NCBI GenBank assembly: GCA_037441705.1
Contig: JBBIRR010000018.1
Span: 10,442 to 74,441, forward strand
DNA: 64,000 nt
Direction of reading: 5' to 3'
Source of the DNA: Ignavibacteriales bacterium
GTDB taxonomy: Bacteria > Bacteroidota > Ignavibacteria > UBA10030 > UBA6906
A model generated the notes under the pieces. It did not search any database and was not told where the DNA came from. It saw nothing but the letters and a program-made list of their open reading frames with translations. The stretch's first letter is position 1. Every line of letters begins with the position of its first letter. Below, in pieces: positions 27,473 to 62,443 of this stretch. Position numbers and translations under genes: made by a program.

Positions 27473-27505
27473 AGTTGTTATTCCATTTTAGTGCTGCTGG
27501 CGAAT

Positions 27506-28939: not shown

Positions 28940-28940
28940 C

Positions 28941-29819: not shown

Positions 29820-29822
29820 CGT

Positions 29823-34920: not shown

Positions 34921-34946
34921 AAGCCTCCTTCATCGTTCACATTCTT

Positions 34947-40946: not shown

Positions 40947-41037
40947 CGGCTGCGCGTTTCGCACTGCGGAGCGTTATATTGTAGGTAAGCCTGATTTTTC
41001 GTACCATATGTGCAGCACGAACACAAATGTACGCCTC

Positions 41038-41121
41038 GCCCGGATGGCGAAATTGGCAGACGCGCTAGATTCAGGGTCTAGTGGCCGCAAGGCCGTGCAG
41101 GTTCAAGTCCTGTTCCGGGCA
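41038..41121 (+). tRNA. tRNA-Leu(CAG)
   Basis: GCCCGGA...TCCGGGCA, arm CTAGA-TTCAGGG-TCTAG, long variable arm. Confidence 0.96.
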
Positions 41122-41127
41122 CGACGA

Positions 41128-41160
41128 AAGAACGCCGTTGCTTTCTGCGCGGCGTTTTTC
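41128..41160 (+). terminator. Terminator after tRNA-Leu
   Basis: AACGCCG...CGGCGTT followed by a T-tract. Confidence 0.6.
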
Positions 41161-41214
41161 ATTGTCAGTACGTTTGCGTCAAGCTGTTGACGCGTCACTC
41201 AGCATGCAGAGAAC

Positions 41215-41970: not shown

Positions 41971-42013
41971 CGGAGTGCTCGCATTGCGCCCTTGCACACA
42001 GGAGAAGAGAAGG

Positions 42014-43159
42014 ATGAAACGCATCTTACGCCTCAGCTGTATTCTTCTGCTCTGCAGCTGGAACCTTCGTTCGCAGACAATTCTCGTTGAGGCTTCAAAT
42101 CCGCTCCCTGTCGAAAGAAACAGTGAAACGCTCGTCATTCGCACAGCCGAGCTGGAACAACTCCTCCCGAGCGCCTCGGCGGAGCGTCTTGTGGTGAGAG
42201 ATGCCGCAACGCGAGAAGAACTCCTCTCACAGGTGATGGAGGGTGAGTTTCTCTTTCAATCGCATTTCGGTCCGAACGAGAAGAAAGAGTTCCTCATTGC
42301 TGAAGCGCCCACCAGAACGAACCCTGCATTGCTTGTGGACGGACGGTTTGTACTCCCGCGAGAGGATTATGCGTGGGAAAACGATCGCATCGCGTTCCGC
42401 ATGTACGGCCCTGCTCTCGCGGCGGAGGTCAATAACGGCATTGATGTGTGGACGAAACGAGTCAGATACCTGATTGTCGAGAAATGGTATGCATCGAGTA
42501 GAGAGAGCGGGAAGGATACCTATCACGAAGATCATGGAGAAGGAGCAGACTTCTTTACCGTGGGGCGGACATTAGGCGCCGGAGGTTCCGGAATCTGGTT
42601 CAACGGAAAACTCTACCAGTCGGGTGTGTTCTCATCGCAACGGACAATAGCCAGAGGCCCCGTGCGTGTCGTATTTGAATTGACCTACGATCGCTGGAAT
42701 GTCGAGGGGAAGATGTTCAAGGAAGTGAAACGAATTTCGCTGGACGCGGGGCAGAATGTCAATAAAATTGACGTGACGTTCACAGGCCTTTCGCGTGCCG
42801 ATACACTTACGGTTGCTTGCGGTCTTGCCAGGAGAAAGAACGCACTCTGCGAACGAAACGAGAAAGCGTGCTGGATGAGTTTGTGGGGACAGACAAATGA
42901 AGATCCCGTCAACGGATATCTCGGAACGGGAGTTGTTCTTGGCGCACAGCAGTGTACAGGGTTTGCTGAAGATGCAGGCCAGTACATGATCCTCGGGAAG
43001 GCAATTGCGGGAGAGAAGTTTACTTACTACGCAGGCGCAGGATGGACGCGCAGCGGTGATTTTACTTCAGCGGAGGATTGGAGGGGTTACCTCGATCAGG
43101 TTGCCGCTCGGCTGCAGCACCCCGTGGCCGTGGTTTTGAGAATCAAACAGGACAAATGA
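42014..43159 (+). CDS. DUF4861 family pectin-locus protein
   Basis: 'DYAWENDRIAFRMYGP', 'GIDVWTK', 'YH.DHGEGAD...VG.TLG.G', 'YYAGAGW'. Confidence 0.8.
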   Translation: MKRILRLSCILLLCSWNLRSQTILVEASNPLPVERNSETLVIRTAELEQLLPSASAERLVVRDAATREELLSQVMEGEFLFQSHFGPNEKKEFLIAEAPTRTNPALLVDGRFVLPREDYAWENDRIAFRMYGPALAAEVNNGIDVWTKRVRYLIVEKWYASSRESGKDTYHEDHGEGADFFTVGRTLGAGGSGIWFNGKLYQSGVFSSQRTIARGPVRVVFELTYDRWNVEGKMFKEVKRISLDAGQNVNKIDVTFTGLSRADTLTVACGLARRKNALCERNEKACWMSLWGQTNEDPVNGYLGTGVVLGAQQCTGFAEDAGQYMILGKAIAGEKFTYYAGAGWTRSGDFTSAEDWRGYLDQVAARLQHPVAVVLRIKQDK

Positions 43160-43192
43160 ATTTCGCTTTCTTACTTGAGTAAGGTGAAGAAG

Positions 43193-44026
43193 ATGGAAGT
43201 ACGTTACGCACCCGACGCAAAAGCCATTCGCACAATGACGAACGAGGAGTTACGGAGGCACTTCCTCATTGATACACTGTTTGTCGAAGATGCTGTTCCG
43301 ATGGTCTATTCCGACATTGACCGATCGATAACGGGTTCAGCTGTTCCGGTTCATCAACGGCTGACGCTGGTTGGCAGCAAGAAAGAAATGGCGGCCGAAT
43401 ACTTCCTCGAACGTCGAGAGATAGGCATCATCAACATCGGCGGAGAGGGGACAATCACCGTTGATGGTGTTCCGTTCGAATTGAAGCACAAAGATGGTCT
43501 GTACATCGGGCGCGGAGCTCGAGACGTGGCATTCGCGAGCGCAGCGAGTACGAATCCTGCAAAATTCTACTTTGTCAGCCTTCCCGCGCACGCTGCGTAT
43601 CCCACGACGCACGTGAAGTTCATCGAAGCTGAGCCGGTGCGCCTGGGCAGTGAGCCTGAAGCCAACAAGCGCACGATCTACAAGTACATTCACCCGCGGG
43701 GAGTAAGGAGCTGTCAGCTTGTTATGGGACTAACGGAATTAGACACAGGAAGTGTGTGGAATACGATGCCGGTCCACACTCATCAGCGCCGTTCAGAGAC
43801 CTACATGTATTTCAATCTCAAGCAGGATGCAATTGTTGTCCACCTGATGGGCGAGCCGGGCGAGACGAAACACATCATCGTTCGCAATGGACAGGCGGTT
43901 CTTTCACCAAGTTGGTCCATTCATTCTGGTGCTGCTACTTCGAATTACTCCTTCATCTGGGCAATGGGGGGCGAGAATCAGGATTTCGACGACATGGATT
44001 GGGTCCCGATGAACATGCTGGCCTGA
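43193..44026 (+). CDS. kduI: 5-dehydro-4-deoxy-D-glucuronate isomerase
   Basis: 'FLERREIGIINIGG', 'SCQLVMGLT', 'WNTMP.HTH.RR.E.Y.YF', 'SP.WSIHSG', 'MGGENQ'. Confidence 0.96.
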   Translation: MEVRYAPDAKAIRTMTNEELRRHFLIDTLFVEDAVPMVYSDIDRSITGSAVPVHQRLTLVGSKKEMAAEYFLERREIGIINIGGEGTITVDGVPFELKHKDGLYIGRGARDVAFASAASTNPAKFYFVSLPAHAAYPTTHVKFIEAEPVRLGSEPEANKRTIYKYIHPRGVRSCQLVMGLTELDTGSVWNTMPVHTHQRRSETYMYFNLKQDAIVVHLMGEPGETKHIIVRNGQAVLSPSWSIHSGAATSNYSFIWAMGGENQDFDDMDWVPMNMLA

Positions 44027-44113
44027 CCTTCCGATACACCTCGCTTCCGCATCAGACAGACTTCGCATAATTGTTGCTTGACCCCAGCCGGTGAATTTTT
44101 TTTGGCCGAGGTC

Positions 44114-44166
44114 TTGACAAGTGGCTTTTCATTTATTACATTTAATACCGATAAAGTCATCGGTTA
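44114..44166 (+). promoter_or_regulatory. PUL promoter with downstream inverted repeat (putative operator)
   Basis: TTGACA(44114)-N17-TACATT(44137); ACCGAT-N6-ATCGGT at 44147-44164. Confidence 0.65.
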
Positions 44167-44349
44167 AGTACTTACGGTCGCCCTTGCTGGCTACCAGCAT
44201 CGCCGGGTGGAGTTACCTCTCTAAGACTCTGCGAACACGCTCCTGCCCGTAAAGGTCTTTCACAGTAGAATAGCTCTTCAGGCCCCTCGGCCAAACACGA
44301 AAGTCTCATCGCTCTGAGGGGACCAGCAACTTCCTTTCTTCGGAGAGGC

Positions 44350-47280
44350 ATGATGGTATCTGCACGCAGAACAACATATCAGGTCGCACAAGCAACACAC
44401 TCCCGTGCGCTTGTGTCGAGCGTGATTCTGGCAATCTCCTGCTTCACACTCGCATCCTTCATGCATGCCCAAACAGTCGGGAAGATTTCCGGAGTCGTGA
44501 AGGACACAGAAACCGGTGAGCCGCTCATCGGCTGCAACGTTGTGGTAATGGGGACGACTCTTGGGGCCTCGACGGACACCGAGGGCGCGTACTTCATTCT
44601 CAATATCCCACCGGGCAAATACGAGTTACAGGCTTCGATGGTTGGTTACAATCGGGTTCTGCAGCGTGATGTCATCGTGAATGCCGGGCGAACGACGATT
44701 GTCAACTTCGCGCTGACAGCAACGGCTGTTGCACAGGAAGTGATTGTGGTCGAAGCCATACGTCCCGACGTTGAAAAAGAGAAGACCTCAACGAGCGCCA
44801 TCGTGCGGGCTGAAGAGGTGCAGACCATTGCCGGCATCCGCGACATCGGGGATGTTCTCACGCTGGCGGCAGATGTAACCGACGGACACTTCCGCGGCGG
44901 TCGCATCGGCGAGGAGTACTACACGTTGCAGGGCATGGGTATTGTCAATCCCCTCGACAATTCGAGCGCGTTTCTTCCCATCATGAGTGCGGTCGAGGAA
45001 GTGGAAGTGATCACGAGCGGTTTCGGTGCGCAGTACGGGAACGCGCAATCGGGCGTTGTGAATATTTCGATGAAGGAAGGCAAGCGCGACCGATGGCAAT
45101 CGCGCATTGAAACGAGGATGCGCGCGCCACGCTTCAAGCACTTCGGGCCGAGCGTGTACGACCCTTCCGCCAACCCCTATCTTGCCATGCTGCTGAACGC
45201 GGGCATCTGGCTGCGCGGCGACCCGAATGCTGAGAACCCTCAGCCGTATTACGGTTCCATGGGTTCAGGACTTGTCAATCGCTATGCGCGAGATACGCTG
45301 GTGCAGCTTGCGGTTGCGCGTGCATTGTATATGCAGTCGCGTCGTGACATTAACCGTTCCTACGGCAATGATGTTGACTTCTCGGTAGAAGCCTCTGCCG
45401 GGGGGCCGATAGAAGAAGATGTGAGAATGTTCCTCGCTCTCCGGTCAAGCACGGAGTGGCCCGCCTTTCCCACTGTCCGCCCGGACCTCGAGCGGCAGCT
45501 CTTAGGAAATGTGGTGTTCGATCTCAGCGGCACTGCGTCGCTGCGGCTAAGCGGGGGATTCACGCAAGAAGACAACAATGCGTTCCCCGGAACGAACAGC
45601 GTGTCGGGATTTCAGCGGTGGCTGTGGGATAGAGTGACGGGCATCCGCTATCAGAAGCGCACGAACACCCAGGTCGGGGCACGGCTGACGCACACACTCA
45701 GTCCCAGCACGTTCTATGAGATAAAGCTGAACGTGCTACTGACGCGCAATCGTATCGGTTCCACGCCCGTGCCGAGCGGCATTCCCGATTCCGTCGCGTA
45801 CGGCGGAGATATTGCGTGGAGTTTCATTCTTCCGGTGACCAACAATAACTCGCCCGATGGGCTAAACTATCAAATAGGATATGATGAGTTCCGCGACGAG
45901 AAGACGCGCACCTTCACCATTGATGCTGCTCTCACCAGCCAGGTGACCAAGGCCCATCTGATCAACGCCGGCGTCCAATTCAATTTCTACTCTATTGATG
46001 TATCCAACATCTTGCAGCTCCGCAGTAATGATTTCATCGAACGCTACAAGGCTCGTCCTTTTGAAGCGGCGGTCTATGTTCAGGACAAGATGGAGTTCGA
46101 AGGACTGATTGCCAACGCAGGTGTGCGCCTCGATCTGTGGAGTTCGGGACGAGATTATTTCACAAACCACTTCACGCCGTTCCTTACGCCTGATACGCTT
46201 GGCATCTTCCATCCCGAGAATGCTCCCCAGGCGAAAGCTCCGGTTATTGGGCGATTGCAGCCGCGCGTAGGGGTGTCGTTCCCGGTCTCGCTGAACACCG
46301 TGTTCCATCTGAACTACGGTGCCTTCATGCAGCGGCCGCCGTTTCAATACGTCGTATCCACGCGCGTTGCGCAGGGAACGAACCGCCCGGTTGTTATCGG
46401 CAACTCGCGCGTCGAACCCGAGGTGACCAATAGCTACGATATCGGCGTCACCCAGGGCCTGGGTGAGGGATTCACGCTGGACGTCAGCGGGTATTACAAA
46501 GACGTGAAAAACCTGATCGAGCAGGCGAACTTCGTTGATCAGCGAACAGGCCAACAGGTCAGCTCGTACTTCAACCGGGACTACGCCGACATACGCGGCT
46601 TCCGCGTTGCACTCTCGAAGCGGCGCGGTAAGCTCACCGGCTCCATCAATTATCAGTTTGGCGTTGCCACGGGGAAAAGCGCAAACGTCACCAGCGCAAC
46701 GCCGCTGTTTACGCAGGATACTGCGGGAGCGGTGATGACGGATCTCTCGAACGTACCGATTCGTGACATTACGCTCGACTTCGATCGGACGCATAACATC
46801 ATCGTCAATGCGGGCTATACCACAGACCCGGAGTGGGGACCCACCATCTTCGGCAACAGCGTGTTTGGCGACATAACGCTCTCGGTTCATTCCTTCTTCC
46901 GCAGCGGCCGGCCGTACACATCACCATCCAACGTCAAACTCATCAATGCAAAGCGGACGCCGTGGGAATACAACACCAACGTTCGGCTCACGAAACGGGT
47001 CCGCAACTTCTTCGGCGCGACGATGGTGTTGTACATGGAGGTATTCAACCTCTTCGAGAACAGGATCCTGAATTACGACTATCTGTTCGCCCGACCGACG
47101 GCGACAAACCCGAATCTGCCGCTGCAGTACTATGAGGCGTATCCCATTGACGATCCGAACAACGGCGTGCGCTACTGGTATAACAAAGGCACGCAGGGGC
47201 CGTTCGCCATCGATCAGTCGTTCCTCATTTACGACAATCAGCCGAGGTCGTTCACGGTCGGTCTTACGCTGGAGTTTTGA
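44350..47280 (+). CDS. TonB-dependent receptor (non-SusC type)
   Basis: CarboxypepD N-domain, plug 'HFRGGR..E', 'TSGFGAQYGNAQSGVVNI', barrel ending in F; no SusC signatures seen. Confidence 0.92.
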   Translation: MMVSARRTTYQVAQATHSRALVSSVILAISCFTLASFMHAQTVGKISGVVKDTETGEPLIGCNVVVMGTTLGASTDTEGAYFILNIPPGKYELQASMVGYNRVLQRDVIVNAGRTTIVNFALTATAVAQEVIVVEAIRPDVEKEKTSTSAIVRAEEVQTIAGIRDIGDVLTLAADVTDGHFRGGRIGEEYYTLQGMGIVNPLDNSSAFLPIMSAVEEVEVITSGFGAQYGNAQSGVVNISMKEGKRDRWQSRIETRMRAPRFKHFGPSVYDPSANPYLAMLLNAGIWLRGDPNAENPQPYYGSMGSGLVNRYARDTLVQLAVARALYMQSRRDINRSYGNDVDFSVEASAGGPIEEDVRMFLALRSSTEWPAFPTVRPDLERQLLGNVVFDLSGTASLRLSGGFTQEDNNAFPGTNSVSGFQRWLWDRVTGIRYQKRTNTQVGARLTHTLSPSTFYEIKLNVLLTRNRIGSTPVPSGIPDSVAYGGDIAWSFILPVTNNNSPDGLNYQIGYDEFRDEKTRTFTIDAALTSQVTKAHLINAGVQFNFYSIDVSNILQLRSNDFIERYKARPFEAAVYVQDKMEFEGLIANAGVRLDLWSSGRDYFTNHFTPFLTPDTLGIFHPENAPQAKAPVIGRLQPRVGVSFPVSLNTVFHLNYGAFMQRPPFQYVVSTRVAQGTNRPVVIGNSRVEPEVTNSYDIGVTQGLGEGFTLDVSGYYKDVKNLIEQANFVDQRTGQQVSSYFNRDYADIRGFRVALSKRRGKLTGSINYQFGVATGKSANVTSATPLFTQDTAGAVMTDLSNVPIRDITLDFDRTHNIIVNAGYTTDPEWGPTIFGNSVFGDITLSVHSFFRSGRPYTSPSNVKLINAKRTPWEYNTNVRLTKRVRNFFGATMVLYMEVFNLFENRILNYDYLFARPTATNPNLPLQYYEAYPIDDPNNGVRYWYNKGTQGPFAIDQSFLIYDNQPRSFTVGLTLEF

Positions 47281-47300
47281 CTCAACGACGAGAGACACAC

Positions 47301-49535
47301 ATGAAACGCGCTGGCCTTTTTTTTCTCCTTTGCATGCTGCCGCTTCTTGCAACCTATGCGCAGCGGGATTGGCGTGTCCACTCCCGCGGCCTGCTGCATC
47401 AGACGGTGTACAATACAGGAGAGATTGGACGGACCTACAACCCCGGCGGAACGGTTGACGAGGGCACGCCATCCATGGAATGGCCGCCGCGCTCGCGCAT
47501 GATTATTGATCGCACCGTCTATCCGGGGCAGCATAACTCCTTCGGCAGCGGGATCTGGATTGCCGGCACCAGGCAGCAGCTCAACGGCACGCGGCAGTAC
47601 ATGTTCTGCGGCGCGGTTTCGGACGCGAGCGGCAATCCTGTCACCGTTACGGGCCTGTACAGCAATCCGATCTCGATCGAGCGTGTCGAGAATTTCCCGG
47701 TGCTTGCCAACGGCAATCTCAATCCCGCATACAATCCGGATGAAGCAGAGGAGATCATCACGGCGCGCTGGCGGACTCCGCTGGGCATTACCGTCACGCG
47801 CACGAGTCGCGCGTGGAGTTTTCCGGGGTACGACAGCTTTATCATCTATGAGTATGAATTGCTGAACACGACGCCCGATACGCTCTTCGACGTTCACGTC
47901 GCGTTTGCCAATTCCTTTGCGCCTTCGATGTTCGGCTATCAGCGCAATCACGGAAACTGGACGGAAGCGCAGTTTCGCGGCCAGCCGCCGAATGGATTGG
48001 GTGATCACTTCGCCCGGTTCGATCTGCGGCGCTACTTGACGTACAATCATGATCGCGAGGGCGCGCCTGATACGGTGTACTTCGATCTGTGGTCGCAGCC
48101 GGGAGACCGGGGCGGCCTGAACTCTCCGCAGGCGGCGGGCATGATGGTGCTGCATTACGATTACAATCATCTGAGTCCCAGAAACAGAACCCGCCAGGTC
48201 TGGATTGCCCCATCGGACAGCGCGGGCATGTGGGATGAGAACGGAAAAGCCAAGCAGCCCTTCTTGCTGCGCTACGAGAACGGCAACCTTCCGCCGGAAG
48301 CAAAAACGATCTCGTGGCTCGATCCCGCGTTGCAGCGCAAGACGGGAATCTTTCAGGGCACGCAGGACTCGCTTCGCATCATCCAGCAGTTCTCCAGCGA
48401 TGTTCGCGATTGGTATTATTGGAAAGGACGAACGAAGGGCTCCGTCAATCTCTCGTGGTGGCAGCCCGTGAACCGTGCGTTAGGGTTCTATCCCTACATC
48501 CTGCCGCCCAATGAAGCTCTGCGCTTCTCTGTTGCCGAAGTGGTCGGCTATGGGCCCGGCGTGTTGAGCGACCGCGTGTACAGAGATCTTGGGGGAACGG
48601 TCCGCACGGCGGTGGATCAGGGTCTCTACTTCTCTCCGATTCCGAGTTGGTACGATACGCTGCAGTATCCCGGTGTCGGTACTGCATCCACCAAGCAGTA
48701 CATCGGCAGCCGGTACCTGCAGACGCATCCTCTGCCGTGGTACGTCACGCCGGGCGTCGTCTCGATTCGTGACGTCGCCGATCGGGCAATTCAGACGTAC
48801 ACGGGGCGTCCGTTGGTGAAGTACGATTCCGTTCAATACGAACCGAAGGACGCGCCGCCGACCGGCAGATACAACACGATTCCGATCCCGTATCCCGCGC
48901 CTGTCATTACGGTGGAAAACACGCGTGCCGCCGTCAACAAAATCACGTGGGGTCCACAGGTCGAAGCGTTCTCATCGCCGCGTTTGCAGGCGCCCTTCAA
49001 GCACTATGAAGTGCTGCGTGCGCCACACCCGCTCGGCCCGTGGTCGCTTATCGACAGCGTCAGCGTGCGCGATCCGCGCTATTTCCAGGATTCGGTGTAT
49101 GTCGTGTACGATCGGGAAAGCAACATCGGCGAGTTTGCGTACTACGCAGTGCGCTCGGTGGACTCGCTCGGCGGCAAGAGCGGCTGGACGAACGTGACGC
49201 GGCATGAAACGCAAGCGCCCGCTTCGGAAACACTCGGCAAGGTGTACGTCATTCCCAATCCGCTGGTGGTCACCAACGGCCTGCGCGGCTCCGATCCGGG
49301 CGGCGAAGTAACAGACCGCCTGCAGTTTGTGGGACTCACGAAGCGATGTACGATCAGAATCTTTTCCTACAGCGGTCAGCTGATCAACACCATCGAACAT
49401 CATCGCGACACCTACGGTCATCCGTGGTATCAGATTTCACGAAACAACCAGTTGCTTGCCTCCGGCGTGTATTATTTTGTGGTGGAAGATGAAAGCGGAG
49501 CGCGGGCAACCGGCAAGTTCGTCATCATTCATTGA
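47301..49535 (+). CDS. Secreted TBDR-partner protein with Fn3-like region and a variant T9SS-like CTD
   Basis: Signal peptide; C-terminus 'KVYVIPNP...LQFVGL...CTIRIFSYSGQLI..I.H...W...NNQLLASGVY.FVVE......GKFVIIH'. Confidence 0.75.
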   Translation: MKRAGLFFLLCMLPLLATYAQRDWRVHSRGLLHQTVYNTGEIGRTYNPGGTVDEGTPSMEWPPRSRMIIDRTVYPGQHNSFGSGIWIAGTRQQLNGTRQYMFCGAVSDASGNPVTVTGLYSNPISIERVENFPVLANGNLNPAYNPDEAEEIITARWRTPLGITVTRTSRAWSFPGYDSFIIYEYELLNTTPDTLFDVHVAFANSFAPSMFGYQRNHGNWTEAQFRGQPPNGLGDHFARFDLRRYLTYNHDREGAPDTVYFDLWSQPGDRGGLNSPQAAGMMVLHYDYNHLSPRNRTRQVWIAPSDSAGMWDENGKAKQPFLLRYENGNLPPEAKTISWLDPALQRKTGIFQGTQDSLRIIQQFSSDVRDWYYWKGRTKGSVNLSWWQPVNRALGFYPYILPPNEALRFSVAEVVGYGPGVLSDRVYRDLGGTVRTAVDQGLYFSPIPSWYDTLQYPGVGTASTKQYIGSRYLQTHPLPWYVTPGVVSIRDVADRAIQTYTGRPLVKYDSVQYEPKDAPPTGRYNTIPIPYPAPVITVENTRAAVNKITWGPQVEAFSSPRLQAPFKHYEVLRAPHPLGPWSLIDSVSVRDPRYFQDSVYVVYDRESNIGEFAYYAVRSVDSLGGKSGWTNVTRHETQAPASETLGKVYVIPNPLVVTNGLRGSDPGGEVTDRLQFVGLTKRCTIRIFSYSGQLINTIEHHRDTYGHPWYQISRNNQLLASGVYYFVVEDESGARATGKFVIIH

Positions 49536-49548
49536 ATCGGGAGAGTGT

Positions 49549-50580
49549 ATGATGAAGACGTTGTGCAGAGTTTGGGGAGTGCTGGTGCTGCTGGCATTGC
49601 TGCCGCTCTCGCTTTCTGTTGCACAAAAGGTCGGAAGCACCTCGATGCAATTTCTGCACGTGATGCCGGGCGCGCGAGCTACGGCGATGGGTGATGCCTA
49701 CAGCGTGCTTGCCTCGGGGGCCGATGCCGTGTTCTGGAATCCGAGCGGCGTCGCGCTGGTCACCGGCCATCAATTTTCTTCTACCTACATCAATTGGATT
49801 TTCGATGCACAGCAGGGCGCGCTCTCGTATGCCACATCCTTGGACGGCTTCGGCGCGATAGGAGTACAAATCCAGTATGTGGACTTTGGCGTGTTCGAGG
49901 AAACGACGAACAGCACGCCGTACATCAAAGACCCCAATGCCCCCGGCATTACGGGCAGAACGTTCCGTCCGTTCAGCTACCTCGTCGGTCTTACGTACGC
50001 AAGAAGTCTGACGGAACGTTTCTCAACCGGCATCAGCATCAAGTACGCGCGCGAGTCGCTCTTCAACGGAGAGATCGTCCGGGCGCAGGTCAGTCAAGGA
50101 GTGTTTGAGGATGTCAGGACCTGGGGGGAAGGCGTGTTGTTCGATTTCGGGATTCGCTACAACACCGGCTTTCGTTCGGTGGAGATCGCTGCCTCGGTGC
50201 AGAACTTCGGCGCCGATATCAAGTATGCAAAAGAAGCCAGTGCCGCGCCGCTGTTGTTCCGGTTCGGTATCGCGGGGAACCTCGTAGGCCCGCAGGCTCT
50301 GCTGTTCGAGCAGGACGACAACCGTGTCACGGTCGCTTTCGATCTCTTCCAACCGAATGATTACACACAGCAAGCACACGCAGGCATCGAATATGAGTTC
50401 GCGAACACCTTCGCGCTGCGCGGCGGATACAAGTTCAATTACGATTCGGAAGGGCTCACGCTCGGTGTCGGCTTCAAACACACGATCGGGCCGGTGGCGC
50501 TCTCGCTCGATTACAGTTACGGTTCCATCGGAACCTACCTTGGGAATGCGCAACGGATAAGTTTGGGAGCCGAGCTATGA
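49549..50580 (+). CDS. PorV/PorQ-family outer-membrane beta-barrel
   Basis: 'QFL....GARA.AMGDA.......DA.FWNPSG', 'G.EY......ALRGGY', 'DYSY...G.LG...RISL'. Confidence 0.85.
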   Translation: MMKTLCRVWGVLVLLALLPLSLSVAQKVGSTSMQFLHVMPGARATAMGDAYSVLASGADAVFWNPSGVALVTGHQFSSTYINWIFDAQQGALSYATSLDGFGAIGVQIQYVDFGVFEETTNSTPYIKDPNAPGITGRTFRPFSYLVGLTYARSLTERFSTGISIKYARESLFNGEIVRAQVSQGVFEDVRTWGEGVLFDFGIRYNTGFRSVEIAASVQNFGADIKYAKEASAAPLLFRFGIAGNLVGPQALLFEQDDNRVTVAFDLFQPNDYTQQAHAGIEYEFANTFALRGGYKFNYDSEGLTLGVGFKHTIGPVALSLDYSYGSIGTYLGNAQRISLGAEL

Positions 50581-52094
50581 AGATTCTCTTTTCCCGGCCT
50601 CAATCGTGGGGCGACGCCCCGCTCCGAAATCTCGCCGGTGTGCTTGTGGTTCTTCTCGCAATCAGTGTGCAGGTGCAGCACGCGTTGGCGCAGGGCTACG
50701 GCGCACCACTGACGGTTCAGGGGCTGGACAAGACGGTTACGCACTCCGCAGCGTCGAGGGCGTTGGGGGGCACAATTTTCGGTGTGTCGGCGGATGCAGG
50801 AATGATGTTCACGAACCCGGCATCGCTACACAGGCTGCGGGCGATTCAGATTTCTCTTGGTGGCGCGATGTACTCCTCGCGCGCCGAGCAGACGCAGCAT
50901 TATGCACCGTTGAAATACTACTCCAATTTCAGTCTGCTCATGGAAGGATTGACGGCGTACATCCCCGATCCCGATACGTCGCTGCCGGGAGTGAATGCCG
51001 GCGACACGGTTCAGCGGCCGTACGATACGATCGGGCCGAACTGGTCACGTTCGAAGAACCGTACGTTGCCTGTCCATGCTCTGCTTGCCGTTCCGTTCAC
51101 GGCGGGCGAGACAGAATTTGCCGCGGGTCTGGGAGTCGTCGAGTACGCCGATCTCAACTATTACTATCAGAACAACAACGTGCTCGATCCTTCGATCCTT
51201 TCGAACCGCCCCCTGCCGACGCCGCGACCGCCCAACGATTCCATCCCCACTCTCGTACGCTGGTGGCAGAACATGCACACGCGCGAAGGCTCGCTGCGCG
51301 GGTATGGTGCTGCGTTCTCCGTTTCCCTCTTCGATCGTCTCTCACTCGGTTTCAGCGGCATGATCATCAAGGGGCAAACGGATGACTTCGAACAGCAGGT
51401 CTCCCGGGGAAGGATGACATTCTACACGAATTTCTTCCGTCTTGATTCGCTGTACGGGCGTATGACACGCACAGGCACGTCGGAGTTCAGCGGGACGGAG
51501 TTCACCATCAGCGGCATGTACCGGACACCGAATGTCACGTTCGGTTTCAGCGTCAGGCCGCCGACGACCATCAGCCGCGAATACACGACGCGCCGGCTGG
51601 TTGATACCACAGGGACGACGCTCGGGCAGACGATTTCGGGCGAAGATAAGATGCGCTTACCGTGGCGCGGAACGCTCGGGATCGCCATCATGCCGAGCAC
51701 GAGTCTGCTGCTGGGACTTGAATACGAGTTCCGCTCCTTCGCCTCGGCGGTGTACACGCAGGGGAATTTCGAATCGCATCCCTGGCGTTCGGCATCGGTG
51801 TTTCACGTCGGTGTGCAGTACACATTGGCAGAGTGGTTGATGCTGCGCGCCGGCTTGCGTGAACAGGCAGAAGTTTTTGAATCGGAAGGCAATCCGCTCG
51901 TGGGCGAGCCGGTGCGTTCCTCCGTGTACACGGGTGGCCTTGGCGTGAACATCGGCGGAGTTCGTTTGAACGTCACGTATGAGTATCACCAGCTGAAGTA
52001 CCAAGATGTGTGGGGCAGCGCCGTCAGCTTCAACAGCGACGCGCGCCACTTGCTGAGCGCGGATATTTCGTACGAGATTCCGTCGCTATGGTAG
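50577..52094 (+). CDS. Second PorV/FadL-like outer-membrane beta-barrel
   Basis: 'SRALGG......DA..MF.NPA.L', amphipathic strands, 'LMLRAG'. Confidence 0.7.
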   Translation: MKILFSRPQSWGDAPLRNLAGVLVVLLAISVQVQHALAQGYGAPLTVQGLDKTVTHSAASRALGGTIFGVSADAGMMFTNPASLHRLRAIQISLGGAMYSSRAEQTQHYAPLKYYSNFSLLMEGLTAYIPDPDTSLPGVNAGDTVQRPYDTIGPNWSRSKNRTLPVHALLAVPFTAGETEFAAGLGVVEYADLNYYYQNNNVLDPSILSNRPLPTPRPPNDSIPTLVRWWQNMHTREGSLRGYGAAFSVSLFDRLSLGFSGMIIKGQTDDFEQQVSRGRMTFYTNFFRLDSLYGRMTRTGTSEFSGTEFTISGMYRTPNVTFGFSVRPPTTISREYTTRRLVDTTGTTLGQTISGEDKMRLPWRGTLGIAIMPSTSLLLGLEYEFRSFASAVYTQGNFESHPWRSASVFHVGVQYTLAEWLMLRAGLREQAEVFESEGNPLVGEPVRSSVYTGGLGVNIGGVRLNVTYEYHQLKYQDVWGSAVSFNSDARHLLSADISYEIPSLW

Positions 52095-52129
52095 TGCATC
52101 AATCGTACCATCAATAAGGGAGGTAGATC

Positions 52130-53698
52130 ATGAAAACAGGATACACGGCGGTCGCACTGCTTGCGATCGTGTTCATGTCCGCCGCCGAGCTGCATGCGCA
52201 GCGAGTCGGAGACTACCGCAGCAACGGCACCGGGGGCGGCAACTGGAGCGCACCGGCAACCTGGCAGCGCTTCAACGGAACGACATGGGTGGCGGCAACA
52301 ACACCGCCGACCGGCACGGCCCAAACCATCACCGTCAGAAGTACGGACTCGGTGTATGTTGATGTCGCAGCAACGATTTCCGACACGCTGAAGAATCAAG
52401 GCCGTCTTGGAGGCGGCACCAATCTCACCATTGCCAACGGCGGCGTCTTCCAGCACGACCAGGATGCCGGTTCGCTTCCGCGAGCCACCTGGGCTGTCGG
52501 TTCAACCCTGTTGATGACGGGAACCACATCAACGGCGCCGGATAACCGCAATCAGAATTTCCATCATGTCGAGTTCAACACTCCGGGCCTTCTTTCCAAC
52601 CTGAACATGAGCTGGGATAGCGTAACCATCGGGGGCGATATTCGTGTCGTCAACACCGGCAGTGCGCGCTGGTATATGACGACGGCGCTGGCAGGCGACT
52701 CTTCCATTTTTTCTATTATGGGTGATGTGATTGTCACGGGAGGGCAGTTCTCGACCAACGGCACCAGCAACGCGAACACGAAATTCGTCATTCATCATTA
52801 CGGTAACATCATTGTCACGGGCGGGAATCTCTCGATCAGTCGCGGATCGCAGGGCAGCGGGTCAGGCTCGACACGCTGGTATCTTCACAACGGCAACTTC
52901 TCGATGTCGAACGCCACGACGCAGAACTCCAACGCGGCCAATGCCTGGTTTGTGTTCGATAAGCCCGGCACACAAACCTTGACGTTGGGCGCGAACAACA
53001 CGCTGACGTCGCTTCCCATCGAAGTGAAACCGGGAACCCGCCTCGATATGGGGCTGAGCAAATTGCGCGGCAGCGGACTCTTCACGCTGAATCCGGGCGC
53101 GATGCTCATCACCGCACAGGAGGGCGGCGTGGATAGCGCGGTGAGCGTGACGGGAACCGTGACCATGACGGGCGCGAGTTTCATGTTCACCGGCACCGGC
53201 GTGCAGGTGACCGGCCTGACCATGCCTGCAACGGTTGATACACTCGCCATCAATCCTGCCAACAGTACCGACACCGTTCGGCTTTCGCAGCCGACAACCA
53301 TCACCGGACGGTTGCGCTTGATGCGCGGGGTGTTCGATAACAGAATTCCGTTCACGCTGGGACCGAATGCAGAGATTTCCTTCGAAGGAGGAACATTGTT
53401 GGTCACCTCGGTGGATGAAACGTCGGGCATTCCAACGTCCTTCTTTGTGGAGCAGAACTATCCGAACCCGTTCAATCCTTCCACCACCATTCGCTACGGG
53501 TTGCCTCGCGAAGCATACGTCACCGTCAGGGTCTATAATCTGCTTGGACAGGAAGTGGCGGCGCCGTTTGCAGGGCGGCAGCATGCGGGCGTGCATACCG
53601 TCGTGGTGGATGCATCGAAATTACCTTCAGGGGTGTACTTCTACCGGGTGCAGGCGGGTTCGTCCGCGCTCACCCGCAAGATGACGGTCGTGAAGTGA
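52130..53698 (+). CDS. T9SS type-A CTD protein with one copy of an unrecognised Gly/Asn/Thr-rich beta domain
   Basis: Signal peptide; domain shared with 57661-62349; '[10 protein letters not shown]...RKMTVVK'. Confidence 0.85.
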   Translation: MKTGYTAVALLAIVFMSAAELHAQRVGDYRSNGTGGGNWSAPATWQRFNGTTWVAATTPPTGTAQTITVRSTDSVYVDVAATISDTLKNQGRLGGGTNLTIANGGVFQHDQDAGSLPRATWAVGSTLLMTGTTSTAPDNRNQNFHHVEFNTPGLLSNLNMSWDSVTIGGDIRVVNTGSARWYMTTALAGDSSIFSIMGDVIVTGGQFSTNGTSNANTKFVIHHYGNIIVTGGNLSISRGSQGSGSGSTRWYLHNGNFSMSNATTQNSNAANAWFVFDKPGTQTLTLGANNTLTSLPIEVKPGTRLDMGLSKLRGSGLFTLNPGAMLITAQEGGVDSAVSVTGTVTMTGASFMFTGTGVQVTGLTMPATVDTLAINPANSTDTVRLSQPTTITGRLRLMRGVFDNRIPFTLGPNAEISFEGGTLLVTSVDETSGIPTSFFVEQNYPNPFNPSTTIRYGLPREAYVTVRVYNLLGQEVAAPFAGRQHAGVHTVVVDASKLPSGVYFYRVQAGSSALTRKMTVVK

Positions 53699-53711
53699 TC
53701 GTCGCGCGTCT

Positions 53712-54950
53712 ATGATTCGTACGTTACACATCGCTGTGCTTGCTCTCGCCGCACTCGGCTGCGGCGGGAGCGAGATGATGGTGAGAGAGAATCTGCCCTG
53801 GTCACGGCGCATTGCCGATTCGTTTGTGCTTCGGCATCCCGGCGCGGCGACCTATGATTCTCTCTCGCCGGACACGAAGTGGAACTACGAGCAAGGACTG
53901 ATGCTGATTTCGTTGCTGGAGATGTGGAAGCATTCCGGCGACACAACGTACTTCGAGTTCGTCCGAAGAAATCTCGAGCAGTACGTAGGGAAGGACGGTA
54001 CCATCAGAACGTATAAGCGGGCGGATTACAACATTGATAATATCGCTCCGGGTCGCGCGCTATTGATCGTGTATCAAGAAACAAAGGATGAGAAGTTTCG
54101 GTATGCAGCCGATACGCTGCGGCAGCAACTGCGCGAACACCCACGAACCAACGAAGGGGGCTTCTGGCACAAGAAGATTTATCCGTACCAGATGTGGTTG
54201 GATGGATTGTTCATGGCGCAGCCGTTCTACGCCATGTATGCGCGCCTGTTCAATGAGCCGGATGCGTTCGACGACATTGCCAACCAGTTTCTCTGGATTG
54301 CCGCACACACGTATGATTCGACGACGGGTCTGTATTATCATGGCTGGGATGAAAGCAGGCAGCAGCGCTGGGCCGATCCGGTGACCGGTCGTTCTCCCAA
54401 CTTCTGGGGCCGCGCCATCGGATGGTACATGATGGCGATTGTGGATGTGCTGGATTATTTTCCGCCCGAACATCCGAGACGTCAGGAGATGCTTGACGTC
54501 TTGCGCCGTCTTGCCGCTGCGCTCCTTCGATTTCGGGATGCACGGACAGGTCTCTGGTATCAGGTACTCGATCAGGGGCACCGGGCTGGAAACTACCTCG
54601 AAGCCTCGGCCTCGTGCATGTTTGCGTACGCGTTTGCGAAAGGAGCAAACAGGGGATATCTCGATGCATCCTATCTCGATGACGCTGCGCGGACGTTTCA
54701 GGGTGTCGTTGCCAATTTCGTGACCATTGACGACCGGGGGTTCATTGACCTTCACAACGTGTGTCGCAGCGCGGGGCTGGGCGGCAATCCGTATCGTGAC
54801 GGAAGCTTTGAGTATTACATCAGCGAGCCGCGCCGCACGAACGACATGAAAGGCGTTGGACCGTTTCTCCGCGCTGCCATCGAGTTGGAGAAGGCGGGTC
54901 GGACCATTCTTGCGCGAGGGCGGTCTTCATTGTCACATCAAGGAGAGTAA
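53712..54950 (+). CDS. GH105 unsaturated rhamnogalacturonyl/galacturonyl hydrolase, lipoprotein
   Basis: 'W.YE.G', 'YNIDNI', 'GGFWHKKIYPYQMWLDGLFM', 'FWGRA.GW', 'NYLE.SAS', 'YRDGS.EYY'; lipobox LGC. Confidence 0.93.
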   Translation: MIRTLHIAVLALAALGCGGSEMMVRENLPWSRRIADSFVLRHPGAATYDSLSPDTKWNYEQGLMLISLLEMWKHSGDTTYFEFVRRNLEQYVGKDGTIRTYKRADYNIDNIAPGRALLIVYQETKDEKFRYAADTLRQQLREHPRTNEGGFWHKKIYPYQMWLDGLFMAQPFYAMYARLFNEPDAFDDIANQFLWIAAHTYDSTTGLYYHGWDESRQQRWADPVTGRSPNFWGRAIGWYMMAIVDVLDYFPPEHPRRQEMLDVLRRLAAALLRFRDARTGLWYQVLDQGHRAGNYLEASASCMFAYAFAKGANRGYLDASYLDDAARTFQGVVANFVTIDDRGFIDLHNVCRSAGLGGNPYRDGSFEYYISEPRRTNDMKGVGPFLRAAIELEKAGRTILARGRSSLSHQGE

Positions 54951-56017
54951 TGAAACGCAGCTCACACATCACGCTGGAAGACATTGCCAAGCGGCTCAAG
55001 GTTTCGCGCGTGACCGTCTCGAAAGCCTTGCGCGGCCATCCCGACATTTCCGAAGAGATGACGCGGAAGATTCGCCAGCTTGCCGACGAACTTGGCTACA
55101 CCCCGAACATCATGGCGCGCAATCTCTCGTCCCGCCGGACTAACATGATCGGCCTCGTCGTGCCGAAGATTGCTCACTACTTCTTCGGGTCGGTTATCGA
55201 AGGCGTTTACAACACAACCTTCGAGAATAATTATGAGACGATCCTGACCGTCTCGCAGGAAAACGCCGAGCGAGAGAAGAAACATCTGCAAACGTTGGTG
55301 GCGATGCGTGTAGACGGCATCATCATTTCCATTACGCAGCAGACGCACGATCCCGATCTGTTCACATGGATTCGGAAGCTCGGCATTCCCCTGCTCTTCA
55401 TGGACCGGCGTCCCGAGCCTCCCTTGCCCGGCTTCAGCAGCGTGCTGGTGGATGATCGCAACGGCGTGTATCAGGCCATCGAGCAGGCAATCAAAGTCGG
55501 ATATCGCAAGATCGGTTTCATCGGCGGCGATCCCACCATCAACATCGGGATGAACCGCCTGTTAGGGTTCGAAGACGCGATGAAAGAGTATCATGTTCGC
55601 ATCAATCCCGATTGGATCGTCCATGGGGGGTACGGCAAAGACGACGGCTACGCGGGCTTCAAGCAGATGTACGAGCGCGGATCGCTGCCCGAGTTCATCT
55701 TCGCGGTAACCTACCCCGTGGCACTCGGCATCCTCGAAGCGGCGAAGGAACTGGAGGTGCAGATTCCCGAAGAGGTGGATCTGATTTGTTTCGGCGACAG
55801 CGACGTTGCACGGTTTATCTCTCCGGCGCTGAGCGTTGTGCGCCAGCCGACGCACGACCTGGGGGTTCGTGCCGTGCAGGTGTTGTTCGAAATGATGCGC
55901 AGCCGCGACGCCATGATCGAGCATCACGTCATTCTTCCGACGCAACTCGTCCTGCGAGACACATGCAGGGCGAAGATTGCGACGGGTAAGGAGATAAGCA
56001 TCAATAATCGAACATGA
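54950..56017 (+). CDS. LacI-family transcriptional regulator
   Basis: 'TLEDIAKRLKVSRVTVSKAL', 'LGY.PN..AR.L', sugar-binding domain. Confidence 0.95.
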   Translation: MKRSSHITLEDIAKRLKVSRVTVSKALRGHPDISEEMTRKIRQLADELGYTPNIMARNLSSRRTNMIGLVVPKIAHYFFGSVIEGVYNTTFENNYETILTVSQENAEREKKHLQTLVAMRVDGIIISITQQTHDPDLFTWIRKLGIPLLFMDRRPEPPLPGFSSVLVDDRNGVYQAIEQAIKVGYRKIGFIGGDPTINIGMNRLLGFEDAMKEYHVRINPDWIVHGGYGKDDGYAGFKQMYERGSLPEFIFAVTYPVALGILEAAKELEVQIPEEVDLICFGDSDVARFISPALSVVRQPTHDLGVRAVQVLFEMMRSRDAMIEHHVILPTQLVLRDTCRAKIATGKEISINNRT

Positions 56018-56080
56018 AGATTGTAAAAGCCCGGTGGACAAGCTTGTTCAAGTTCAGTCAATTTTTTTTGACTTCTTACG

Positions 56081-56090
56081 TAACCGGTTA
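56081..56090 (+). promoter_or_regulatory. LacI-type operator palindrome
   Basis: Perfect TAACCGGTTA with central CG, just upstream of the CE12 gene; TTGACT at 56068. Confidence 0.55.
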
Positions 56091-56095
56091 AGGAA

Positions 56096-57610: not shown

Positions 57611-57660
57611 GAACGTCGTTCGATTCATCTACACAAACCAACTCTTGAAAGGGTGAAGCC

Positions 57661-62390: not shown

Positions 62391-62443
62391 CCGGATGCGC
62401 GCTGGGGATGGAAACAGAAAGTTATGAACGAAGGAACAATCGG

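Follow-up and report, generated by a model that had tools for sequence, protein, structure and literature searches.

Bacteroidia PULs use SusC/SusD. In a pectin locus of an Ignavibacteriales bacterium, by comparison, the gene of a TonB-dependent receptor (TBDR) is followed by no SusD gene, which raises the question of what stands beside this receptor at the cell surface. The window, that is, the whole stretch of DNA that was analysed, has 64,000 nt and corresponds to positions 10,442-74,441 of the forward strand of contig JBBIRR010000018.1 (assembly GCA_037441705.1). Our analysis favors, with a probability of roughly 0.55, a conserved four-gene outer-membrane module for the uptake of uronate-containing oligosaccharides, in which a 744-aa secreted protein (p744) would be anchored by the outer-membrane barrel PorVa beside the TBDR. 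Such a module has apparently not been described before and seems to take the place that SusD has in gut Bacteroides.

Gene order and pectin setting

The TBDR gene is followed by those of p744, PorVa, a second barrel (barrelB) and a secreted protein with a type-A CTD (Table 1), and the spacings calculated from the coordinates are 20, 13, -4 (an ATGA overlap) and 35 nt. The ATG of p744 lies inside an open reading frame that opens at TTG 47277. The positions and order of these genes were all as the preliminary description had placed them, and its account of tight or overlapping genes in a pectin locus agrees with these spacings and with the Pfam and NCBIfam matches of the flanking genes. The missing SusD was also confirmed, as none was found downstream of the TBDR and the single SusD_RagB match in the genome is located on another contig.

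Table 1. Features of the locus, in positions of the window
Feature	Residues	Positions	Strand	Models
SDR (KduD-like)		41215-41970	+	Pfam/NCBIfam
DUF4861/BT3233-family gene		41948-43159	+	Pfam/NCBIfam
KduI		43175-44026	+	Pfam/NCBIfam
TBDR, 976 aa: CarboxypepD_reg-like N-terminus (SusC-type extension), plug and barrel		44350-47280	+
p744 partner protein, 744 aa		47301-49535	+
p744 signal peptide	1-21	47301-47363	+
p744 galactose-mutarotase-like beta-supersandwich	~22-520	47364-48860	+
p744 FN3 domain	529-639	48885-49217	+
p744 PorZ-like variant CTD	641-744	49221-49532	+
PorVa, cognate PorV/PorQ-family 14-strand-type outer-membrane barrel, 343 aa		49549-50580	+
barrelB, divergent PorV/FadL-superfamily barrel, 505 aa		50577-52094	+
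522-aa secreted protein, ordinary type-A T9SS CTD		52130-53698	+	TIGR04183, PF18962
GH88/GH105-type unsaturated glycuronyl hydrolase		53712-54950	+	Pfam/NCBIfam
LacI regulator		54950-56017	+	Pfam/NCBIfam
GDSL/PaeY-like esterase		56096-57610	+	Pfam/NCBIfam
1562-aa type-A CTD protein		57661-62349	+	Pfam/NCBIfam
PL9-like lyase with type-A CTD		62408-63982	+	Pfam/NCBIfam

The TBDR matched Pfam CarbopepD_reg_2 (E 3.9e-18), and its best PDB match was RagA (6sli_B, residues 46-247). The NCBIfam SusC/RagA model was matched by the N-terminus only, with 51 bits, which is under the cut-off of 368, and there were partial NCBIfam matches to TonB-hemin and other TBDR models.

The variant CTD and the recurrence of the module

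An HMM of the variant CTD was built from six copies and searched against the proteins of the genome. Exactly 8 proteins scored at least 95 bits, while the next best was PorU with 40.5 bits and the ordinary type-A CTDs reached 34 bits at most, so the variant is distinct from the CTDs of type-A cargo, as had been proposed. The p744 CTD was closest to the PorZ CTD, both in structure (5m11_A; VIA-align Z 11.6, rmsd 2.4, 28% identity) and by NCBIfam, where p744 weakly matched the PorZ C-terminus model NF052228 (E 3.1e-5).

All 8 of the variant-CTD proteins are encoded near a CarboxypepD_reg-TBDR and 7 of them near a PorV-family barrel, the cassette on contig C6 having no such barrel nearby; the gene order deviates in C7 and L094. 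The cassettes of this genome accompany GH13 with CBM20, GH94 with glycoamylase and CBM9, or an ABC sugar transporter, in loci for starch, beta-glucan and further sugars. Beyond this genome, 79 related loci were compared, and the counts for the TBDR, PorVa and barrelB are based on those with enough flank. In 70/70 the TBDR was directly upstream of p744, and in 72/72 PorVa was downstream of it. A TBDR, body, CTD and barrel also occurred together in 20/20 sampled variant-CTD loci from 20 other genomes. The preliminary description had asked for a conserved, CAZyme-linked triad of TBDR, variant CTD and PorV-type barrel, and this is what was found. The gene arrangement is far beyond chance because it is repeated within this genome and was seen again in all related loci that were examined.

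These settings also bear on the direction of transport. According to the portion of PMC6434023 that concerns them, CarboxypepD_reg-TBDRs include Myxococcus Oar, which is reported to be required for secretion of the PopC protease, and the TBDR could by analogy be an exporter rather than a glycan importer, with the module secreting or assembling p744 independently of uptake. We consider this highly improbable, since genes of uronate catabolism and of secreted pectinases, with a LacI regulator, flank the module on its two sides, and since its paralogues are accompanied by an ABC sugar importer or by intracellular GH94 and GH13 enzymes, which need imported oligosaccharides. In addition, the CTD of p744 is of the T9SS type, and SprA is encoded in the genome. 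The T9SS on which the preliminary description relied is further represented by PorU, PorV, PorQ and PorZ. The canonical PorV, PorQ, PorU and PorZ are encoded elsewhere in the genome, PorVa being a separate paralogue. The GldK model gave a sub-cut-off score only, and searches of the genome with the GldL and GldM models gave no match.

Fold and conservation of p744

The Pfam search with p744 returned no family, only a weak match to CHU_C (E 0.0066). The AF2 model (pLDDT 89, pTM 0.89) was compared with known structures by VIA-align, and the body matched 9ju0 (Z 19.7), GH116 (17.3), GH15 (17.0) and GH94 (~17), while the FN3 domain gave Z 11. A SusD/TPR fold was considered for p744 and was ruled out by the model and the structure matches, which indicate a beta-supersandwich. 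In aldose epimerases the supersandwich domain is the catalytic one, and many GH and PL enzymes contain such domains. A like fold alone demonstrates no function for p744.

It is possible, though doubtful, that p744 is an enzyme, such as a new lyase, hydrolase or epimerase, which acts on oligosaccharides of pectin or uronates at the surface and would still be anchored by the barrel. Aldose 1-epimerases, which p744 matches with Z ~12, use the supersandwich as their catalytic fold, and with Z 13.3 and 11.9, respectively, p744 also resembles domains of the PL26 exo-rhamnogalacturonan lyase and of a PL15-type alginate lyase. The very high conservation of p744 can be read in the same way: homologues in Ignavibacteria-type, KSB1, Calditrichia and Rhodothermales records are 65-83% identical, about 45 positions are invariant even at 35% overall identity, and p744 has many polar and aromatic residues that never vary. 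However, the GH and PL matches align at the accessory N-terminal domain and not at the catalytic (alpha/alpha)6 or beta-helix domain, neither of which is present in the model; the preliminary description had left room for p744 being SusD-like or catalytic, and the model contains no recognisable catalytic domain. The TBDR and PorVa reach about the conservation of p744 (60-70%). In the paralogues, which belong to loci for starch, beta-glucan and other substrates, the fold is the same and a TBDR is always next to it, a pattern more in keeping with a generic transport partner than with a single enzyme activity.

The breadth of this fold was seen in the C42-type paralogue. By hhalign, p744 and this paralogue have the CTD alone in common, with no detectable similarity in the body. 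The model of the paralogue, which is only moderate (pLDDT 72.7, pTM 0.57), nevertheless has the same supersandwich and the same top PDB matches (Z 17.5 to 9ju0), and on these models the two proteins form a single structural family of TBDR partners.

The two barrels and the proposed mechanism

PorVa scored 211.8 bits against NF033709 (cut-off 90) and fell under the PorQ and PorV equivalog cut-offs of NCBIfam, and its profile matched the PDB PorV 6h3i_F (3.1e-20). The complex predicted for the p744 CTD and PorVa had an ipSAE of 0.93, compared to 0.00 for the best of 3 controls, and thereby passed; of solved pairs 116/157 attain that mark, of mismatched pairs 2/215. This pass may reflect likeness to solved PorV-substrate complexes (the PorV family of 6h3i), and the score is silent on any preference of the p744 CTD for PorVa over canonical PorV. 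The runs agreed in at least 88% of contacts, partner pLDDT was at least 77, and the predicted interface is formed by conserved CTD motifs (residues 649-654, 686-695, 713-723 and 735-744). The prediction thus supports a tether of p744 by PorVa via its CTD, which is one half of the earlier proposal that the barrels of the locus tether the neighbouring CTD proteins.

The same prediction is blind to the difference between transient and stable binding, and PorVa, rather than being a permanent anchor, might serve only the secretion of p744 as a hard-to-export cargo, in the role of a dedicated shuttle or chaperone that SprF has towards SprB. In that case p744 would be processed in the manner of other cargo, and the link to the TBDR would be co-regulation only. 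Sections of PMC5562754 ascribe to PorV a shuttle role in which it binds cargo that is still uncleaved, and sections of PMC10202324 present PorP/SprF-like barrels as transporting specific substrates. Even so, we regard this as unlikely. The CTDs nearest to that of p744 belong to PorZ and PorU, the two proteins that retain theirs, and a need for secretion alone leaves the strict adjacency of the TBDR unexplained.

The other half of the proposal, that barrelB tethers the type-A cargo, was not upheld. BarrelB was present in 68/68 related loci and the 522-aa cargo followed it in 49/64, alginate-type loci keeping barrelB though they are without the cargo. The start of barrelB overlaps the PorVa stop (ATGA) in 51/63 loci. 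The cargo CTD (TIGR04183 47.8 bits, cut-off 23; PF18962 44 bits) is of the ordinary type-A kind found on 49 contigs of the genome. The body of the cargo is repeated downstream in the 1562-aa protein, where two regions share 39-45% identity with it. BarrelB itself was related to the PorVa profile by hhalign (probability 97.2%, E 4.4e-11), with a conserved insertion of ~150 aa (about residues 100-250) that does not align to PorVa. Its best PDB matches were 9hiv_F, an 'outer membrane protein' of Bacteroidota (2e-8), and TbuX/TodX (5e-6), and its NCBIfam matches were sub-threshold: BamG with 52 bits (cut-off 250; E 5.3e-14), PorV_fam with 37.8 (cut-off 90) and Toluene_X. In these matches barrelB resembles BamG/FadL-TodX-type 14-strand barrels, but it differs in scoring below the family cut-offs, in its insertion and in being fixed in this module. 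Most likely it belongs to the same anchor/receptor assembly as PorVa.

In the uptake module that we favor, p744 would be exported by the T9SS, and its PorZ-like CTD would stay uncleaved and dock onto the PorVa encoded by the adjacent gene. Docking would hold the carbohydrate-binding-type supersandwich at the surface beside the SusC-like TBDR, where p744 could capture the pectin-derived oligosaccharides that lyases and esterases of the locus, secreted by the T9SS, release, and hand them to the TBDR, the job of SusD/SGBP lipoproteins in Bacteroidia. The preliminary description saw in p744 a putative substrate-binding lid of the TBDR. BarrelB is a co-translated, divergent member of the barrel superfamily of PorVa. 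That p744 retains its CTD, is anchored at the surface, binds glycans and cooperates with the TBDR is in each case what we infer.

Such a module is similar to SusC/SusD (RagA/RagB) in that a TBDR with a carboxypeptidase-regulatory-like N-terminal extension is followed by a secreted surface protein, the pair being placed within a substrate-specific CAZyme locus and multiplied as paralogous cassettes per glycan. It differs in that p744 is a beta-supersandwich with FN3 and CTD rather than a TPR/alpha-helical lipoprotein, has a leader of the signal-peptidase-I type, and would need the T9SS and probably a dedicated barrel instead of a lipid anchor; the TBDR also remains under the SusC/RagA cut-off. 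A second comparison is with PorZ-PorQ and PorU-PorV of P. gingivalis, which are described in parts of PMC5562754 and PMC10202324 as T9SS cargo that keeps its Ig-like CTD and sits on a PorV/PorQ-family barrel. The CTD of p744 and the family of PorVa correspond to these, but PorVa is encoded beside its own cargo and a TBDR in nutrient loci, and the body of PorZ consists of beta-propellers. SprB-SprF and PG1035-PorP, as treated in parts of PMC9143113 and PMC10202324, likewise combine a CTD subclass with a cognate neighbouring barrel gene for surface anchorage. Their CTDs are type B, in contrast to the PorZ-like, type-A related CTD of p744, their barrels are PorP/SprF rather than PorV/PorQ (NF033709), and their functional setting is that of gliding adhesins, where the present module has a TBDR in CAZyme loci.

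Both SusD and the variant CTD occur in some families of the phylum (22/22 and 17/22 genomes, respectively, in family f27), and the variant CTD is therefore not a strict replacement of SusD. In the class of the present genome, SusD was found in 10/37 genomes with at most 2 copies each, and the variant CTD in 36/37; across the phylum, the variant CTD was present in 87/151 genomes.

Gene order around the receptor

The gene order reported in the preliminary description was found as described: a TonB receptor (TBDR), a 744-aa secreted protein (p744), a PorV/PorQ-family barrel (PorVa), a second barrel (barrelB), and a 522-aa protein that carries a type IX secretion system (T9SS) C-terminal domain (CTD) of ordinary type A follow one another with spacings of 20, 13, -4 and 35 nt. 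Upstream of these five genes lie an SDR (KduD-like), a DUF4861/BT3233-family protein and KduI, and downstream lie a GH88/105-type hydrolase, LacI, a GDSL/PaeY-like esterase, a 1562-aa CTD protein and a PL9-like lyase. The reading favored here, with a probability of roughly 0.55, is that p744 is exported by the T9SS, docks on PorVa, and captures oligosaccharides that are imported by TBDR.

Features of the window and their positions
Feature	Position (nt)	Strand	Description
rRNA operon	2064-7726	+	complete
16S rRNA	2064-3610
tRNA match in spacer	3748-3821
tRNA match in spacer	3907-3979
tRNA match in spacer	3999-4071		weaker, 45.7 bits
23S rRNA	4355-7435		3081 nt
5S rRNA	7610-7726
Sensor kinase and regulator	8501-12321	-	1044-aa Reg_prop/Y_Y_Y hybrid-type sensor histidine kinase; LuxR-type response regulator
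Cytochrome P460 gene	16458-17069
Carotenoid cluster	19493-33206	-	see text
Additional CarboxypepD_reg-TBDR	25178-27472		within the carotenoid cluster
ThiS-ThiF-rhodanese and PALP genes	33472-36312	-	482-aa fusion; cysteine-synthase-type enzyme
Top promoter-like site	44114-44142		gap before TBDR
TBDR	44350-47280		976 aa, N-terminal CarboxypepD_reg domain
p744	47301-49535		744 aa, signal peptide
PorVa	49549-50580		PorV/PorQ-family barrel
barrelB	50577-52094		second barrel
522-aa protein	52130-53698	+	ordinary type-A T9SS CTD
1562-aa protein	57661-62349	+	two copies of the 522-aa body

As had been observed beforehand, no SusD gene follows TBDR, and the sole SusD_RagB match of the genome is on another contig (C34). 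The locus does not qualify as a polysaccharide utilization locus (PUL) in the sense of PULDB, which is defined by adjacent SusC-like and SusD-like genes (PMC13543919), because a SusD-like gene is absent from it. TBDR scored 51.2 bits with the SusC/RagA model TIGR04056, below the cut-off of 368.25 and over model positions 2-107 only. Several TBDR models gave partial matches to residues 205-255 and 445-790, each under its cut-off, and neither Pfam Plug nor TonB_dep_Rec was matched at E<=0.01. With pectin genes on either side of the module, an Oar-like exporter is very improbable, and TBDR is treated below as an importer. A scan of 40900-58000 gave 8 promoter hits versus 8.1 in shuffled sequences, and 21 terminator hits versus 16.3, reported as no excess in either case.

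The body of the 522-aa protein is without any Pfam family. The two copies of it within the 1562-aa protein are 39-46% identical to the 522-aa body, and many related loci carry it in tandem arrays of 2-5 genes ahead of the PL9 gene. Possibly this is an uncharacterised domain that acts on pectin or binds it.

Modeled fold of the partner protein and predicted docking of its C-terminus

The Pfam scan of p744 (E<=0.01) returned CHU_C only, with SusD_RagB and SusD-like models unmatched, and phmmer against PDB sequences gave 0 matches at E<=1. The AF2 model, built from a 46-sequence alignment, is mostly beta and has a mean pLDDT of 89 and a pTM of 0.89. When compared with 48,161 PDB representatives using VIA-align, residues ~20-520(-580) were modeled as a galactose-mutarotase-like beta-supersandwich. 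Among its matches are dextran dextrinase 9ju0 (Z 19.7, rmsd 3.2 over 263 aligned residues), GH116 (Z 17.3), the GH15 glucoamylase N-domain (17.0) and GH94 N-domains (~17), and, with lower scores, PL26 exo-rhamnogalacturonan lyase (Z 13.3) and aldose 1-epimerases (~12). Residues 529-639 correspond to an FN3 domain (Z ~11), and residues 641-744 match the PorZ CTD (5m11_A 680-776; Z 11.6, rmsd 2.4, 88 aligned, 28% identity). For this protein VIA-align was clearer than Foldseek against PDB, whose matches, to FN3 tandems and to GH94/GH116 N-domains, were all of low TM (TMq <=0.26).

A SusD/TPR fold, which the preliminary description had named as incompatible with its proposal, is absent from the AF2 model, and an alpha-helical fold of this type is rejected in favor of the mostly-beta supersandwich (Z 17-20). 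Nor does the leader show a conserved Cys for lipidation as in a lipoprotein signal: it ends A-Q-(Q)-R, and the Cys within it is unconserved in the alignment consensus. The supersandwich is shared with enzymes, which leaves room for p744 to be a surface enzyme, and the fold common to enzymes and p744 shows no function by itself. No catalytic domain was recognisable in the model, which contains no (alpha/alpha)6 or beta-helix domain and has accessory-type supersandwich matches only. A surface enzyme is considered unlikely, and p744 is read as a docked capture protein. Close homologues of p744 (65-83% identity) occur in Bacteroidota MAGs, KSB1 and Calditrichia; the source names, where given, are T9SS type A / C-terminal target domain protein or 'hypothetical'. 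Full-length relatives extend down to ~35% identity.

The C-terminus of p744 had been described as a distinct CTD variant, and this was borne out. Neither type-A CTD model (TIGR04183 or PF18962) was matched at E<=0.01. Residues 641-744 nevertheless qualify as a T9SS CTD in the general sense, an Ig-like beta-sandwich, ~80-100 residues long, at the C-terminus; the motifs (PxP, G, GxY, K) can be seen in alignments. Of the landmarks known from T9SS CTDs, the variant class retains PNP, G..V, GxY and K..I.K; an insertion follows PNP, and a '(C)TIRI(Y/F)' strand is conserved in addition. An HMM built from six such C-termini of the same genome recovered exactly 8 of its proteins at 95-198 bits, while the next best were PorU (40.5 bits) and then ordinary type-A CTDs (<=34 bits).

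To model docking, mature PorVa (residues 27-343) and p744 residues 630-744, both as alignments, were submitted to complex prediction. This pairing had been proposed in the preliminary description, and it passed, with ipSAE values of 0.93, 0.93 and 0.94, against at best 0.00 among 3 controls. The pass mark was reached by 116 of 157 solved complexes and by 2 of 215 mismatched pairs, counts that are approximate for custom alignments. Contacts agreed by >=88% between runs, and partner pLDDT was >=77. The predicted interface comprises conserved CTD motifs (649-654, 686-695, 713-723 and 735-744) and, in PorVa, the N-terminal segment 27-38 and loops. The prediction supports, but does not prove, binding of the p744 CTD to PorVa. 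Since PorV-cargo assemblies have already been solved, the pass may reflect likeness to those, and the modeled complex carries no information on whether the CTD prefers PorVa or canonical PorV.

In terms of family membership, PorVa passes the PorV/PorQ subfamily model NF033709 (211.8 bits; cut-off 90) and fails the equivalog models for PorQ (NF033711, 86.3 bits; 220) and PorV (NF033710, 82.6 bits; 250). Its profile matches the solved PorV 6h3i_F (3.1e-20). barrelB is under all family cut-offs (PorV_fam 37.8 against 90, BamG 52.1 against 250, Toluene_X 28.8 against 29.7), and phmmer against PDB sequences gave 0 matches at E<=1. By hhalign it is remotely homologous to PorVa (97.2%, E 4.4e-11), apart from ~150 residues that form an unaligned insertion. 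Among solved proteins, its best relatives are 9hiv_F (2e-8), an 'outer membrane protein' chain from Bacteroidota, and the FadL-family TbuX/TodX.

Distribution of the module and paralogous cassettes

A genome scan yielded 79 p744 loci in Ignavibacteria-type, KSB1, Calditrichia and Rhodothermales records, including the full module (L036) in the complete genome of Roseithermus sacchariphilus. Neighbours were assigned by tblastn matches (E<=1e-8) to the proteins of the window. Among loci with enough flank, TBDR was directly upstream in 70/70, PorVa downstream in 72/72, barrelB next in 68/68, and the 522-aa cargo next in 49/64. At least one pectin gene was present in 33 of the 44 loci with 9 kb on either side. 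The conserved triad of receptor, variant-CTD partner and PorV-family barrel and its linkage to CAZyme genes, both anticipated in the preliminary description, are observed. In one Stygiobacter-type record (L083:6137-20998), the four-gene module is present at ~38% identity with the 522-aa cargo absent, and is accompanied by GntR, an SDR, an Alginate_lyase+Hepar_II_III lyase, an MFS transporter and a SASA esterase. This alginate-type setting indicates that the four-gene block follows uronate-polymer loci generally.

On conservation, barrelB was rejected as a tether of the 522-aa type-A cargo: it is present in 68/68 loci and the cargo in 49/64, it is retained in the cargo-less alginate-type locus, and in 51 of 63 loci its start codon and the stop of PorVa overlap. 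barrelB most likely belongs to the PorVa/p744 assembly.

When the module proteins were searched against their own genome by tblastn, p744 recurred only in its last ~110 residues, each time flanked by a CarboxypepD_reg-TBDR and a PorV-family barrel. Variant-CTD genes were close to a TBDR in 8/8 cases and to a PorV-family barrel in 7/8, the exception being on contig C6; the gene order differs on C7. These cassettes have varied neighbours: GH13 and a CBM20 protein on C16; GH94, a glycoamylase and a CBM9 protein on C21; an ABC sugar importer on C42; and BNR-repeat proteins on C20. The C42 cassette encodes a 1078-aa partner with >4000 homologues; none of them carries a Pfam domain, and the homologues named by their sources are 'hypothetical protein'. 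Alignment of its family with the p744 family (hhalign) was confined to the CTD. Its model, of moderate quality (pLDDT 72.7, pTM 0.57), shows a p744-like supersandwich with the same top matches (9ju0, Z 17.5; 1lf6, 16.8), and its CTD matches that of PorZ (Z 11.6, 27% identity). Because the two models are alike, the TBDR partners form, on modeled structure, one family built of a supersandwich, an FN3 domain, optionally further beta domains, and a CTD like that of PorZ. Identities of CTD, barrel, TBDR and body were correlated across 7 cassettes (Mantel r 0.67-0.82, p 0.001-0.017), which fits whole-cassette duplication and is not taken as evidence of binding.

The preliminary description had named sprA and porKLMN as T9SS core genes that the genome should have; SprA was found in it, as were PorU, PorV, PorQ and PorZ. 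GldL and GldM (two models) had no match in it; the models were equally silent on control genomes, so the missing matches are not evidence of absence. GldK had a sub-threshold match only (110 bits; cut-off 350), and the ORFs around it did not resolve a porKLMN operon. The genome has 11 PorV_fam members above the cut-off: a canonical PorV (302 bits to PorV_fam) adjoining PorU and a PorQ equivalog (256 bits), both outside the module, a PorV2-like protein, seven in TBDR cassettes, and one on C46. A PorV-family barrel acting as a secretion shuttle only would be compatible with the predicted CTD contact; a shuttle role alone is judged improbable, slightly more so than a surface enzyme. The C46 barrel lies in a separate unit (L008:6327-9843, minus strand), where the gene for a 514-aa protein that combines an F510_1955-type glycosylhydrolase segment with a CTD best matching the PorU C-terminus is followed by two PorV/PorQ-family barrels, one sub-cut-off, with no TBDR in the stretch examined. 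It looks like another arrangement of a cargo with dedicated barrels.

Across the phylum, the variant CTD class was detected in 87 of 151 sampled genomes (E<=1e-12), in up to 16 copies. TBDR, body, CTD and PorV-family barrel occurred together in 20/20 loci from 20 other genomes, a sample of top-scoring matches that all resemble the C16/C42 type; in one, the barrel was placed between TBDR and partner. Within the class of the window's own genome, 36/37 sampled genomes carry the variant CTD (up to 16 copies) and 10/37 carry SusD (<=2 copies). SusD-rich families are mostly without the variant CTD (f20, SusD 10/10 versus 0/10; f15, 8/9 versus 1/9), and families with both exist (f27, SusD 22/22 and variant CTD 17/22). 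As related genomes are non-independent, this distribution counts as a pattern, not as a test.

Proposed mode of uptake and other genes of the window

The reading of p744 as a barrel-docked partner draws on known precedents. PorU:PorV and PorZ:PorQ sub-complexes exist, and PorZ requires PorQ for outer-membrane association (PMC5562754). The retained PorU and PorZ CTDs bind PorV and PorQ, and cognate PorV-like barrels have been hypothesised to shield the CTD from cleavage (PMC10202324). PorP-like barrels associate with type-B CTD proteins (PMC9143113). In the proposed mechanism, p744 would be exported by the T9SS, and its PorZ-type CTD would stay attached and dock on PorVa, so that the supersandwich is displayed beside TBDR. 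There it would capture oligosaccharides freed by secreted CTD enzymes that the locus encodes, PL9 and the esterase among them, and TBDR would import these for the GH88/105, KduI and KduD steps. The analysis, computational throughout, shows the module's architecture and conservation, the modeled folds and a predicted interface; retention of the CTD, glycan binding by p744 and its cooperation with TBDR are what we infer. The anchoring step taken alone is quite probable; a true SusD-like lid geometry of p744 on TBDR is doubtful.

The module resembles SusCD in that a TBDR is paired with a surface partner inside CAZyme loci, but differs in that p744 has neither the SusD models nor the fold and TBDR is below the SusC cut-off. 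It resembles PorZ-PorQ in the presumed retention of a CTD on a cognate barrel, but PorVa reaches the broad PorV/PorQ model only. More tentatively, at somewhat under even odds, Ignavibacteria-type Bacteroidota, Rhodothermales, Calditrichia and KSB1 may possess a T9SS-assembled counterpart of SusCD, with a supersandwich-FN3-CTD lid or partner held by a retained PorZ-type CTD on its own PorQ-like barrel, and with a second barrel in uronate modules. The second barrel would then make a three- or four-protein outer-membrane import complex. If true, this would define a new carbohydrate-capture protein family, extend the principle that a cognate barrel holds a retained CTD from PorZ-PorQ to nutrient acquisition, and give the T9SS, besides its part in enzyme and adhesin secretion, a role in assembling machines for nutrient import. 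Since SusD is the marker for finding PULs, SusD-poor lineages appear PUL-poor, and the module would provide a new genomic marker of glycan-uptake loci in these four groups.

No prior description of the TBDR/variant-CTD/barrel triad was found in the open literature searched. The 2026 glycoside-transporter review (PMC13543919) has 0 mentions of 'type IX', Ignavibacteria or Rhodothermus, and the Roseithermus transcriptome paper (PMC7409140) has 0 mentions of TonB, SusD, PorV or T9SS. The latter reports R. sacchariphilus as a pectin user, and the model is directly testable in this cultured carrier of the module; Rosettibacter / Melioribacteraceae isolates are candidate carriers for the C42-type cassettes.

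Several other features were observed in the window. The 23S match of the rRNA operon is longer than its 2925-position model, so the 23S may hold an insertion. The carotenoid cluster encodes phytoene synthase, two phytoene-desaturase-type oxidases, a polyprenyl synthetase, a carotenoid synthesis protein and GT2. Alongside these are a photolyase and a regulator of the MerR/B12-binding (CarH/LitR) type, suggesting light regulation of pigment synthesis. The ThiS-ThiF-rhodanese fusion and the adjoining PALP enzyme resemble a sulfur-carrier-protein biosynthetic pair. The Reg_prop/Y_Y_Y architecture of the sensor kinase is typical of Bacteroidota glycan sensors.
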